Below are positions 6,049-9,940 of a stretch of 13,436 bases of DNA, one piece after another. Location: IMG/VR virus record IMGVR_UViG_2802429224_000007, positions 1 to 13,436 of that record; one strand, written 5' to 3'. Positions within the stretch are counted from its first letter, which is position 1. Each line of letters begins with the position of its first letter. A model generated the notes under the pieces. The model saw only the letters and a list, made by a program, of their open reading frames with translations. It did not search any database and was not told the origin of the DNA. The position numbers were made by a program, and so were the translations under genes. Origin of the DNA: a virus (Duplodnaviria; Heunggongvirae; Uroviricota; Caudoviricetes).

Positions 6049-6187
6049 TACGTATCCTTATACCTGAAATCATCGCAAGTATGCCTGGCCGCGAGATTAT
6101 GGCACACTTGTCCGGTTAACTCTCGTTCTCATACAGGTAGCACAAACGTGAAAATCCTTGTTGATGAAAAAGATGATTGGTTAATTT

Positions 6188-6211
6188 ATTGATATAAAAG
6201 GATTTATATCA
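6188..6211. promoter_or_regulatory. Perfect 10-bp inverted repeat ttgatataaa-agga-tttatatcaa in the flk upstream region
   Basis: Exact palindrome with a 4-nt spacer, AT-rich, about 140 bp upstream of the flk start. Candidate operator or recombination site; function unknown. Confidence 0.3.
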
Positions 6212-7107: not shown

Positions 7108-7272
7108 CAAGATAGATGGGGCCAAACTGGTATTATTGCAACCCTCACTTGTGAGGGTGCAAAAAACCGTAGTTTTTGCGCTGCGGGTTTCTGCTTTGGG
7201 ATGATAGGGTGCCTTATCGACCTTAACCCTGGCAACCGATTGACGGGGGATTGCTCCCCCGTCGCGGTTTCC

Positions 7273-7413
7273 TTACTGTTTACACTGTAAGAACGCCGCA
7301 AACTCCGCTCCCCAGAAGCTCATCCGTATTTCACACAGCGAGCCGTGCAGCATCCAGATGATGAGGATTGCCGTCACGCAGAACGTGATGACCGTAAGCG
7401 ATTTTTGCGACAT
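7273..7413 (-). CDS. hok: Hok/Gef-family type I toxin (small membrane-depolarising peptide), 46 aa
   Basis: Manual translation of the minus strand gives MSQKSLTVITFCVTAILIIWMLHGSLCEIRMSFWGAEFAAFLQCKQ. It has the family hallmarks: N-terminal transmembrane helix, SLCE(I/L) motif and C-terminal E(F/L)AAFL.CK (compare HokA ...SLCELHIKQESYELAAFLACKLKE). Strong SD aaggag 8 nt upstream of ATG 7413. Not in the ORF track because it is under 60 aa. Confidence 0.82.
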   Translation of the reverse strand: MSQKSLTVITFCVTAILIIWMLHGSLCEIRMSFWGAEFAAFLQCKQ

Positions 7414-7513
7414 AGCGCTTGCTCCTTTTTCGGGGAGGCGCTAACCTATCACTTGCTAAGGGTAGATGGTTAGGGCCTCGGTTAAACAAAAATGTTTTCC
7501 GGGGCCTTTCCAC
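7331..7513 (-). CDS. Mok-like overlapping reading frame (putative translational coupler for hok)
   Basis: 60-codon ORF in a different frame, starting about 100 nt upstream of hok (GTG 7513) and ending inside hok, as expected for mok in hok/sok loci. Basic, low-complexity product. Could also be a chance ORF. Confidence 0.3.
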   Translation of the reverse strand: MERPRKTFLFNRGPNHLPLASDRLAPPRKRSKRYVAKIAYGHHVLRDGNPHHLDAARLAV

Positions 7514-7599
7514 ATCCGGCCTTCAGGTATTCCCTCCAGCCATCAGCCGAAAGGCACCCGCGCGAATTCTAGCTTGGTTTTTTCCCTTGTTTCAATCCG

Positions 7600-7699
7600 T
7601 TGAGGCCTCTCAGCCTTCTGATATAAAATTCCCGACCGCAGACATTATTCAGTCACGCATTTGATACATGCTTCCGCCGGCGTTCGCGCCGGTTTTTTT
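7600..7699 (+). ncRNA. Candidate ~65-nt small RNA: sigma70-like promoter (TTGAGG -35 at 7600-7605; extended -10 TGaTATAAA at 7619-7627) plus strong intrinsic terminator
   Basis: Promoter-like elements with a 16-nt spacer. The terminator (feature below) is about 50-65 nt downstream of the predicted transcription start. No ORF between them. Located on the strand opposite to hok/mok, upstream of mok, so it could be a Sok-like antisense RNA if the hok leader extends this far. Confidence 0.4.
7676..7699 (+). terminator. Rho-independent terminator (GC-rich stem ccggcg-ttcg-cgccgg followed by T7)
   Basis: Perfect 6-bp GC stem with a 4-nt loop, immediately followed by ttttttt. Terminator-competent on the plus strand only. 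Confidence 0.75.
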
Positions 7700-8081
7700 C
7701 GTCCTGTTGCTGCGTAGATCGTCATGTGCGATCGAGGCGCGGTATTGATCCTTTTTTCAGTTTAATTCTGACTCTTGATTTTGCGCAGGCCGCGCTGCGT
7801 CTGGCTTCTTTGTTTGAGGGTTGTTTAACGCGATCCTTTTCGCGATCGTGTCTTGTCCCACGTAAAGTATGAAAACTCTTTTAATATCAGCCTGTTTTCT
7901 TTCTCCTGCCATTCATGAGATCGTAAAAATCCCTCTGAAAACTGCAAAAAATTTCAAAGCGTGAAATTTCAGATCTTCGCTTTTCCCTCAGTTGCTGCGC
8001 GGGCTGGCGGTCATTTTTGCACGGCAGAAAACTGAAAAACTGTTTCGACACAAAACCCGCGGGTTGGAGGGGGTAGCGCGG

Positions 8082-8124
8082 TTTACGTCACCTCACGCTT
8101 TACGTCACACCGTTTACGTGGTGT
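8082..8124. repeat. Three direct repeats of TTTACGTCAC / TTTACGTG (starts 8082, 8099, 8113), the last embedded in a palindrome cacacc-gtttacgt-ggtgtg
   Basis: Direct repeats spaced 17 and 14 bp apart inside an ORF-free region downstream of the phage-like operon. Resembles iteron or arm-type binding-site arrays. Confidence 0.45.
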
Positions 8125-8242
8125 GCGCATACAGCGCCGGAATGGCACGCAGAACGCATTAATCAGGTGGCAGATATGAAAACGCACGGCCTGAACCGTG
8201 CGTTGCGTGATGGGGCGTTTATGTGGATTTTATGCCCGGTGA

Positions 8243-9940
8243 TCAGGCGATAAGGTCGCCGTATTTTTCGCGCAGGCTCGTAGCCTGTTGGGCGTCTGCG
8301 GCAAGTTCGCTGCTGTTTGTTGGTGCGCCAGTGTTGCTGTGGGTGTGGTTTGCAGTGTGTGTGGCCAGCAACTGAACCAGATCCAGAATATCAATCAACA
8401 ACGTCAGCAGATTAAGTCCGGATTTTTCCCGTGAGCCACCGCGCCCAATAAATACAGTCGGGGCGGTAAATTCCAGGCCGCCGTCCGCCCGGCATGTTCT
8501 GCGGCCTCCCACGTTTTCGGTGAGGTTATGCTCGATAGTGGATGTCGCCCCTTTGAGTTTAGTCAGCAAATCCTGCGCTACCATCTGGATATGCTCACCG
8601 GCTGCGATCGCATAATGGCCAGTAGTAATGTGTTCTGTCTGACCTGTCATCAGCTTGCTGGTTCCCAGAACGCTGGTTATGTCGTTTGCCTGTACTGTTG
8701 TTGTTCTGGTTGTTGTTGTGCGTTCTTCCTGATCGCTGTTAATGGTTCGCCTGGCTGAATGCTCCCTGATTTGCTGGTCGGTTTCTCTGTGCCAGCTTCC
8801 GTCAGTCGTGACACGCTGAAACACTTCTGCGCGCTGTTGTTGCAATTGTTCGCCGGGTTTTACATCAGGCAGGTTATGACCAGCGGGTAAGATTTGCCTG
8901 ATAACAGGCTTATCCGGGCGTCCTTCAATGTTGGATATTTCCACGATGGTGCCTGCTGGCGGGTAGGCAAAACATCCCGCCTCACTGCCAGCCATGGGGA
9001 CGGGGAGTGGTACTGCCGGGTAAACAGGCGTATCGTTTTTATCGTTGCCGTTCTCATCAAGCAACTGCACATCGACGGCGTAGCGTGGGCGGAAGCTGTC
9101 GGCCACATCGCCCAGGGTGACGGATTCCGTTGGGGCAATGACGCGCGCCAGCCTGGTATGTAGAGTACCGCTGGCCAGTTCCGGGAACTGTGTTTCCATC
9201 TGTCTGCGCAATGGTGATTTGGAGACAGGGCTGCCCGTGACGGTAAGGCGCTCCCATGTCAGGGTCATTTTCTCGTTGTTGAGGGCTACGCGGGTAATGC
9301 GTCCGGCGGGAAGATTCACGCCCGGTCGCACAGTTTCCATAAACATGATGTCGATGCTGTTTCCGCCGCTTTGCCCGAGTGTGTACTGTTGCGGAATATC
9401 CGGCATTGTAATACTGGCAAATCGTGAATCAGCTGCGCTTCCCACAAATACAGAACCGTCCGGCATAGGGTGCCAGACGTAATCGCTGATACTGAATGCT
9501 CGCCCCAGTTGGCTGAGCAGTTGTGCTCCGCTGCCGCTGTGGGTGATGTAGGGAGTTGGTATACTGGCATAATCCGCATCCGGAGTGATAAAAACGATAC
9601 CGCTTTGTCGCCCCAGATTATCGAGTACCCCCCGCAACGTCGGGTGTTGCATGGAGCAAGGGAAATCAAAATCCAGCACAGCAGCCGCTTCACGAATAAA
9701 AAGGCGACGTGAGCCATTTTCAGCAGGTTGATCGCGCTCAATGTAGCCGGAGAAATAGCGCCATGCTTCACCGTCACGGCCGAGATCAATTTGTACCATT
9801 GCGCCGGCAAGGCTGTGTTCGGGTGACAGATTGTTAACAGAAATGAAGCCACGACCGGCAGCATTCAGGGTAAGAACAAGGCTTATATCGGCAATTTCCA
9901 CCCGTTCGCCATTAATCATGCAGCGTTGTATCAATTTCAT
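8243..9940 (-). CDS. Phage structural protein, putative baseplate hub / central spike or fiber-tip protein (C-terminal HxH metal-binding apex-like motif)
   Basis: 565-aa ORF and last gene of the operon. ATGA overlap with the upstream gene stop; SD gaggaagg upstream. C-terminus ...LLATHTANHTHSNTGAPTNSS resembles the HxH apex motifs of trimeric spikes and fibers (P2 gpV C-terminus HTHKHPGDSGGTTG; lambda Stf HxH repeats). N-terminal region loosely resembles gpD/gp27-like hub proteins. Recalled from memory, no search run. Confidence 0.4.
   Translation of the reverse strand: MKLIQRCMINGERVEIADISLVLTLNAAGRGFISVNNLSPEHSLAGAMVQIDLGRDGEAWRYFSGYIERDQPAENGSRRLFIREAAAVLDFDFPCSMQHPTLRGVLDNLGRQSGIVFITPDADYASIPTPYITHSGSGAQLLSQLGRAFSISDYVWHPMPDGSVFVGSAADSRFASITMPDIPQQYTLGQSGGNSIDIMFMETVRPGVNLPAGRITRVALNNEKMTLTWERLTVTGSPVSKSPLRRQMETQFPELASGTLHTRLARVIAPTESVTLGDVADSFRPRYAVDVQLLDENGNDKNDTPVYPAVPLPVPMAGSEAGCFAYPPAGTIVEISNIEGRPDKPVIRQILPAGHNLPDVKPGEQLQQQRAEVFQRVTTDGSWHRETDQQIREHSARRTINSDQEERTTTTRTTTVQANDITSVLGTSKLMTGQTEHITTGHYAIAAGEHIQMVAQDLLTKLKGATSTIEHNLTENVGGRRTCRADGGLEFTAPTVFIGRGGSREKSGLNLLTLLIDILDLVQLLATHTANHTHSNTGAPTNSSELAADAQQATSLREKYGDLIA

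Follow-up and report, generated by a model that had tools for sequence, protein, structure and literature searches.

A probable cos site in a conserved non-coding block of an HP1-like Escherichia prophage, shared with satellite-like elements

The window analyzed here, a stretch of 13,436 nucleotides from IMG/VR record IMGVR_UViG_2802429224_000007, contains at positions 7747-8125 a non-coding block that is very probably the cos site of an integrated HP1-like (ESSI-2-related) prophage of the P2 family (Peduoviridae). This assignment is based on the position of the block, its homology to physical phage genome ends, the conserved layout of its motifs and its retention by satellite-like elements; the binding of terminase, the precise cut sites and the length of the overhang are predicted from the sequence. 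Sites of the cos kind are well known, and the present one is so far unannotated in this phage lineage. It is a new instance of that kind, because the TerS of the lineage shares no more than 47% identity with its counterpart in any sequenced phage (41-47% with the HP1-like relatives) and no isolated phage carries this cos.

Prophage context and attachment site

The window consists of Escherichia chromosomal DNA (mnmC-fabB-yfcJ-flk), ~92% identical to E. coli, running into a prophage. Its housekeeping genes reach only ~92% identity with every complete E. coli genome, and the source is probably an Escherichia other than E. coli. Downstream of mnmC, an Rfam match at 63-141 identifies naRNA4, an element of the REP type (RF02564, 74.8 bits). 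The relative found in STEC719 provides a complete element, which is a P2-family prophage. Its early part comprises, in order, an integrase gene next to pdxB, C/cox, a replication endonuclease, parM/parR and ogr, and is followed by the portal, large terminase, scaffold, P2-type capsid and gpM small terminase genes, then by the lysis and tail genes, the tail fibres and, at the very end, a 565-aa gene. The terminase of STEC719 is of the P2 type (gpM and gpP homologs), and its portal gene lies ~20 kb from the cos region; the window itself stops at the tail-fibre genes, short of the terminase.

The att core AAAATCCTTGTTGATGAAAA was located at 6151-6170 as a 20-bp duplication of the pdxB 5' end, the second copy being at the pdxB start. 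It is accompanied by TGTCCAC / TGTCCACGCAGTG arm-like repeats and by an exact IHF consensus at 6182-6194, which is the only match of WATCAANNNNTTR in the window, the cos region being devoid of any. The segment 6151-6230 is the prophage attR. The cos region lies 1.5 kb from the att core, inside the prophage, between the hok cassette (ORF 7273-7413 on the minus strand, promoter-like site at 7595-7566) and the stop codon, at 8243, of the last late phage gene. The cargo genes between att and the cos region are here DUF4875 and the hok cassette. Five insertion sites on the chromosome are represented among the relatives, four of them adjacent to serS, raiA, copA and ytfP and one in the flk-pdxB interval; the cargo differs each time, and this non-coding block adjoins the 565-aa gene throughout.

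The segment 6171-7700 and its equivalents in loci L001-L009 form a variable-cargo hotspot, in which hok adjoins cos in most cases. The cargo of the relatives includes DUF4875, a RuvC-family gene, a com gene with a DNA methyltransferase, a TM2 protein, a serine acetyltransferase, a YafO toxin pair and an ATP-dependent nuclease. Such a hotspot between cos and att parallels the cos-adjacent hotspots described for P2/P4. At its edge, a promoter-like element on the plus strand (7600-7629, TTGAGG-18-TAAAAT) is followed by a strong terminator hairpin (7676-7693) with a T run, the stem of which is retained in locus L044 with a different loop. This 7600-7700 promoter-hairpin unit could produce an RNA of ~65 nt or could insulate hok from cos.

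The last late gene and its terminator

The 565-aa gene (8243-9940, minus strand), annotated as a "baseplate protein", is the last late gene before cos. Its product does not return any Pfam family, and tblastn identifies it as a homolog of HP1 orf35 (42% identity), with 45-47% identity to the ESSI-2, SW5/SI7 and ESSI2_ev phages. In most linear HP1-like phage records, among them those of HP1, HP2, K139, PV94, phiO18P, F108, SW5, SW3, ESSI-2, ev015 and ev129, no further gene separates the orf35-type gene from the genome end. The distance from its stop codon to the genome end amounts to 175 bp (SW5), 192 bp (HP1) or 198 bp (ESSI-2); in the window, 167-184 bp separate the stop codon from the predicted cohesive segment, and the invariant block starts at 162 bp. 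A terminator-like hairpin of the late (tail) operon is located at 8181-8204 on the minus strand, formed by a 10-bp stem followed by UUUCAUAU; the stem is kept across copies and the loop and flanks vary. An equivalent hairpin directly follows the gene in HP1, SW5, ESSI-2, ev015 and PV94. The predicted cos region is found directly downstream of the orf35-type gene and its terminator, on the attP/int side.

Sequence features of the block

A first-pass annotation had described positions 7700-8242 as a region without long ORFs that carries direct repeats, a palindrome and GCGATC-containing repeats. Its description holds. The region is devoid of any ORF of at least 60 aa on either strand, the longest being of 56, 54, 51 and 48 aa, and no ORF is conserved in it across relatives. 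The three TTTACGT(C/G) direct repeats are present at 8082, 8099 and 8113; the TTTACGTSRY pattern returns three matches in the window for 0.15 expected, a number reached in 0 of 200 shuffles. The third repeat does lie within a palindrome, CACACC-N8-GGTGTG (8106-8125), as read directly from the sequence, the 6-bp arms of which are weak when taken alone. GCGATC is present three times (7728, 7830 and 7842), and its count over the whole window does not exceed chance (9 found, 7.6 expected).

The first direct repeat, TTTACGTCAC (8082-8091, plus strand; GTGACGTAAA on the minus strand), is the nearest to the core and is a candidate binding site for the small terminase subunit. The repeat search reports a second TTTACGTCAC at 8099-8108 (plus strand), and the third, TTTACGTGGT, covers 8113-8122 (plus strand). 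A fourth copy is inverted, on the minus strand at 7858-7867 (CCACGTAAAG on the plus strand), and forms an inverted pair with them from ~194 bp beyond the core. The cos core itself, AAAACCCGCGGGTTGGAGGGGGTAGCGCGG, spans 8052-8081. Within it, colinearity with phage genome ends designates GCGGGTTGGAGGGGGTAG (8059-8076, plus strand) as the predicted cohesive-end segment, with putative cut positions. On the other side of the core, 20 bp into the left arm, the motif TTTTTCAGTTT occupies 8029-8039 (minus strand); motif searches identify a second exact copy at 7753-7763 (plus strand) and a copy with one mismatch at 7939-7949 (minus strand), and overall four matches are found for 0.42 expected. The left arm also contains a second palindrome, the inverted pair AAATTTCA-N5-TGAAATTT (7949-7969), with arms invariant and a spacer variable across copies, and a cluster of seven GATC (Dam) sites (7717-7975). 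These represent 7 of the 34 GATC sites of the window, with ~0.66 expected per 259 bp, and the GCGATC sites are paired 12-13 bp apart within the cluster.

The same features single out this region at the scale of the 35-kb STEC719 prophage, as it includes four of the eight copies of the repeat motif, the sole two copies of TTTTTCAGTTT and the densest GATC cluster. Rfam analysis of 7700-8242 does not return any family, the only signal being a sub-threshold sok match in the hok leader, and single-strand folds of the core are unremarkable (z-scores of -1.7 and -1.9).

Conservation among relatives

The region is present in 51 complete E. coli genomes and annotated in none of them; in 48 of 5426 it is found near full length, with 91-99% identity. 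The 35 distinct copies that we compiled come from E. coli (51 genomes), IMG/VR (23 contigs) and E. albertii, the latter being the only species representative with the cos core in a collection of one genome per species. The core (8052-8081) is nearly invariant in these 35 copies. The array of repeats is conserved, sits at a landmark of the phage genome and most likely binds protein; the comparison with related elements that the first-pass annotation had proposed shows that the repeats mark an endpoint, very probably the end of the virion chromosome.

A phylogenetic footprint of 11 divergent copies delineates the whole predicted cos region as 7747-8125, with conserved islands flanking the predicted cut on both sides. 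These islands are TTTTTTCAGTTT (7752-7763), CACGTAAAG...AATATCA (7858-7890), the AAATTTCA palindrome, a near-invariant segment from 8025 to 8125, and the hairpin at 8181-8204. The TTTTTCAGTTT motif is invariant in the footprint, and the inverted repeat copy (7858-7867) is kept in all divergent copies, satellites included. In locus L007, homology ends to the left of 7747. The GATC sites, 5-7 in number and at fixed positions, are found in every full-length phage-type copy and are absent (zero sites) from the four satellite-type copies. A search with the left half-site for IMG/VR contigs ending at this position retrieved only contigs that carry the uncut site.

Comparison with phage genome ends

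A blastn search with the region reports no match in the phage or plasmid collections. The ends of each phage record were joined and aligned to the minus strand of the window. The local alignment of the 8052-8081 block spans the end junction of ESSI-2 (z 11.1) and of ev015 (z 9.3), whereas the junction similarity is not significant as sequence for SW5 (z 3.6), HP1 (z 1.4) and P2 (z 0.1-0.2) as compared with shuffles; the support that HP1, SW5 and P2 lend to a cos site is architectural only. The ESSI-2 junction reads GACAAAAACGGCACTACACCGCACCCGC|CTGCAAGTTTTGGATCGCAAAATTTTTTCAGTTTTG and the window reads GACGTAAACCGCGCTACCCCCTCCAACCCGC|GGGTTTTGTGTCGAAACAGTTTTTCAGTTTTC. The 15 nucleotides CTACACCGCACCCGC occur at both ends of the ESSI-2 record, which is a property of the deposited record and not a measured overhang, and the cos core corresponds both to this terminal repeat and to the 16 nt that close the PV94 record. 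SW5 breaks at ...CTACACCGC|GCACCCGCC, and the genuine sequence of ev015 stops at ...GGCGCTAC, is followed by an adapter and restarts at GCACCCGCC. Three independent assemblies of phage DNA (ESSI-2, SW5 and ev015) break within the homologous segment. The adapter that opens NC_049395.1 (positions 1-44 of locus L046, ESSI2_ev015) is presumably the Nextera transposase adapter, as the reverse complement of CTGTCTCTTATACACATCTGACGCTGCCGACGA. At this genome end, the RefSeq record thus starts with an artefact of its assembly. The 9 nt CTACACCGC that SW5 carries at its cos junction are missing from the record of SI7.

Experimentally defined ends are available for the Vibrio phage PV94, which possesses a 16-nt 5' overhang (PMC3986222). 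Its record ends with ...CTCTTCCTCACCCGCC, colinear with CTACCCCCTCCAACCCGC in the window, and restarts with TGCGCG...TTTTTTTCAGTTTTT. In HP1, the record annotation places cosL at 1-9, attP at 251-694 and int from 698, and the cos of HP1 and HP2 adjoins attP and not the portal gene (PMC2771037).

The layout of the motifs was compared by counting positions from the end of the C-rich segment. The [CG]AC[GA][GTA]AA repeats are found at -62, -48 and -31 in the window, at -48 and -28 in ESSI-2, at -45 and -28 in SW5, at -49 and -28 in PV94, and at -54, -41 and -24 in HP1. On the opposite side, TTTTTCAG stands at +20 in the window, +24 in both ESSI-2 and PV94 and +27 in HP1, with none in SW5, and AATTTCA at +91 in the window, +115 in ESSI-2, +153 in PV94 and +118 in HP1, again with none in SW5. 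The inverted repeat copy is located at +194 in the window, +199 in SW5, +256 in PV94 and +212 in HP1, with none in ESSI-2. For the direct repeats and TTTTTCAG, ESSI-2, SW5, PV94 and HP1 fall within a few bp of the positions observed in the window, the layout around the cut is positionally conserved across six phages, and GATC sites occur in the left arm of all five sequences compared (window, ESSI-2, SW5, PV94 and HP1). The window and PV94 furthermore share GATCG.G..AAGGATCGCGTTAAA in the left arm (z 5.3), AAGGATCGCGTTAAA being a 15-nt string, while the PV94 proteins are only ~32% identical. Because these positions are shared with phages of known ends, the direct repeats read as the version, specific to this lineage, of a family-wide array beside an experimentally defined cut site, a correspondence drawn from sequence.

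Relation to known cos and pac systems

The closest counterparts are the HP1-like cos sites of HP1, PV94, the Cronobacter phage ESSI-2 and the Escherichia phage ESSI2_ev015 (ev015). As in the window, they follow an orf35-type baseplate gene and a terminator on the attP/int side, and exhibit a C-rich segment ending with ...ACCCGC, direct [CG]AC[GA][GTA]AA repeats at distances of ~28 and ~48 bp, TTTTTCAG on the opposite side at 20-27 bp, an inverted repeat copy ~200 bp away and left-arm GATC sites. They differ in the repeat itself, GACGTAAA here as compared with GACAAAA in ESSI-2, GACGGAA in SW5 and CACGGAA in HP1 and PV94, and in its number, three here instead of two, a number that HP1 exceeds as well. 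The cohesive segment predicted here has 2-3 additional nucleotides, and cargo (hok, DUF4875) is intercalated between cos and att. The ends of PV94 are experimental, whereas those of the present lineage are predicted from its sequence.

The P2/186/P4 cos, a 19-nt GGCGAGGCGGGGAAAGCAC within a 55-bp core, belongs to the same phage family and terminase type. Its cohesive segment is likewise G-rich, with 12 of 19 positions matching by eye; similarity to the 19-nt cohesive end and the 55-bp core is not significant, the local alignment to the P2 junction scoring like shuffles (z 0.1-0.2). In both cases, cos is flanked on one side by a converging late gene with its terminator and on the other by a variable-gene hotspot, and a smaller, dependent-looking element has the site as well. 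In contrast, the site is here beside the last tail gene and att, and theirs is downstream of the portal gene Q. Moreover, P2 has no GATC cluster in the 350 bp facing the variable genes and a single GATC site in the 350 bp opposite.

The lambda cos is organized as cosQ-cosN-cosB, in which gpNu1 has R sites with an IHF site between them. The outline is the same here, with a predicted nicking site, three short putative small-terminase repeats on one side and accessory sequences on the other. However, the sequence and the terminase family are unrelated, the IHF consensus is missing here, the predicted overhang is longer, and an extra inverted repeat copy lies 200 bp off. Finally, in the Dam-controlled pac of the P1 type, cleavage requires GATC-containing elements to either side of the cut. 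The GATC cluster observed here is on one side only and is absent from the satellite-type copies.

Satellite-like elements carrying the block

Four distinct copies of the block are located in elements of ~12 to 12.7 kb. These satellite-like loci are L021 (1-13000, strain A36, next to hpt), L018 (5400-18300, STEC367, tRNA-Arg), L025 and L040. The gene order was established from the full annotations of A36 and STEC367, and the domains from the A36 element. It starts with an integrase, an HTH protein, a 291-aa protein and a major capsid protein of the P2 family (PF05125, 4e-42), and continues with an Icd-like protein, an 889-aa Toprim protein, a second integrase, ogr/delta, hok, the cos block and a 169-aa protein. 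The 889-aa Toprim gene is primase-like, and the element also includes a possible scaffold gene. Satellite and prophage share just hok, ogr, the cos block, a distant capsid gene and an integrase.

The identity between the satellites and the window rises from 24% (7582-7746) and 49% (7747-7937) to 68-69% (7938-8051) and 91-93% (8052-8125), and reaches 100% over the terminator hairpin (8181-8204). In the palindrome, the satellite copies read CACGCC...GGCGTG, a change on both arms. The satellite-type block is apparently present in ~9 complete E. coli genomes, 7 of which also have a phage-type copy (counts derived from places-per-genome figures, several strains being clonal), as compared with 48 of 5426 for the phage type. 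The element usually shares its genome with the full prophage, A36 and STEC316 being two such strains. For STEC316, 306, 307 and 308, the position of the third copy of the block was not found. P2 and P4, as helper and satellite, share only cos (PMC9122126). A P4-style satellite with its own capsid protein may be unusual.

Alternative explanations

The first-pass annotation had proposed a relic att or ori, or a regulatory hub, and several non-packaging functions were weighed against a cos site. Among these, transcription control is an improbable reading, according to which a phage regulator would use the TTTACGTCAC repeats as operators and the region would hold operators and promoters for the cargo (hok and others), or the GATC cluster would form the basis of an epigenetic switch of the Dam/OxyR type. 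The GATC cluster with its GCGATC pairs 12-13 bp apart, the palindrome with invariant arms (7949-7969) and the directly adjoining variable cargo genes would suit such a function. However, the only two sigma-70-like promoters detected across 7200-8400 lie at the hok edge (7566-7629), outside 7700-8242, and the region contains no Ogr-type TGT-N12-ACA site, which speaks against the proposed hub; the repeats and the core are equally conserved whatever the cargo, also in satellites without GATC sites, and the motifs stand at fixed distances from experimentally defined genome ends elsewhere. An even smaller chance is left to a small non-coding RNA or small-protein gene. ORFs of 25-56 aa are present, and one of 54 aa begins 8 nt from the core, the same being true of a 54-aa ORF in SW5; yet the ORF of the window has internal stops in six close relatives and a lost start or early stops in eight others, including the four satellite-type copies, the other ORFs are frameshifted in relatives, and the lack of any Rfam match and the modest fold z-scores (-1.7 and -1.9) argue against an RNA.

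Two further readings are the least credible of all, to an equal degree. One assumes a relic or accessory recombination site, with integrase/excisionase arm-type sites (the P arm of attP) beside the prophage end, and draws on HP1, in which attP starts only 250 bp from cos and the inverted repeat copy (+212) lies at the attP edge. Against this, the prophage att core (6151-6170) has its own TGTCCAC repeats and IHF consensus, 1.5 kb away, relatives at five chromosomal sites keep the same block, and a relic is at odds with a core nearly invariant in 35 distinct copies. The other assumes an iteron replication origin or a partition centromere, since the region resembles oriC or plasmid origins in its short direct repeats, its A/T-rich stretches and its GATC cluster, and the prophage family carries parM/parR. 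But the region contains no DnaA box, no initiator or par gene is found within 17 kb, no repeat cluster is observed upstream of parM in the STEC719 prophage, and in phages of the P2 family the replication origin is located within gene A (PMC3986222).

Proposed function of the cos region

If we assume that the block is a cos site, the small terminase subunit (gpM homolog) would bind during lytic growth to the GTGACGTAAA repeats (8082-8122), and probably also to the inverted copy (7858-7867). The bound repeats would position the large subunit to introduce staggered nicks in the G/C-rich core, predicted at ~8059-8076, generating 5' cohesive ends of ~16-19 nt. The A/T-rich motifs of the left arm (TTTTTCAGTTT and the AAATTTCA palindrome) may serve as sites for accessory or bending proteins, and the hairpin (8181-8204) would only terminate the late operon.

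The conserved region, with ~380 bp, is larger than a minimal cos, and part of it may have another role. In phage-type copies, the left arm comprises ~260 bp with 5-7 fixed GATC sites and the distal inverted repeat copy. One tentative and rather unlikely possibility is that the cos region is composite, with a minimal terminase site (8025-8125), retained by phage and satellite-like elements alike, and a ~260-bp left arm of the phage-type copies acting as a Dam/SeqA-sensitive control element. Such an element would be conserved across HP1-like phages and might time packaging, or set the processing of the cos ends or the polarity of injection, and satellites would dispense with it.

Implications

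The assignment as a cos site gives a function to a conserved 0.4-kb stretch left unannotated in 51 E. coli genomes and would fix the virion-genome ends of an Escherichia prophage lineage without isolated representative. It also provides a rule to locate cos in HP1-like prophages, in which the last baseplate gene is followed by a terminator, two or three [CG]ACG-AA repeats, a C-rich segment and TTTTTCAG. The variable cargo, hok among others, fits the known pattern of cos-adjacent hotspots, and the fragment could provide these phages with a packaging signal for transduction of the cosmid type. Lastly, the cos block shared with the satellite-like elements points to a candidate helper-satellite pair.
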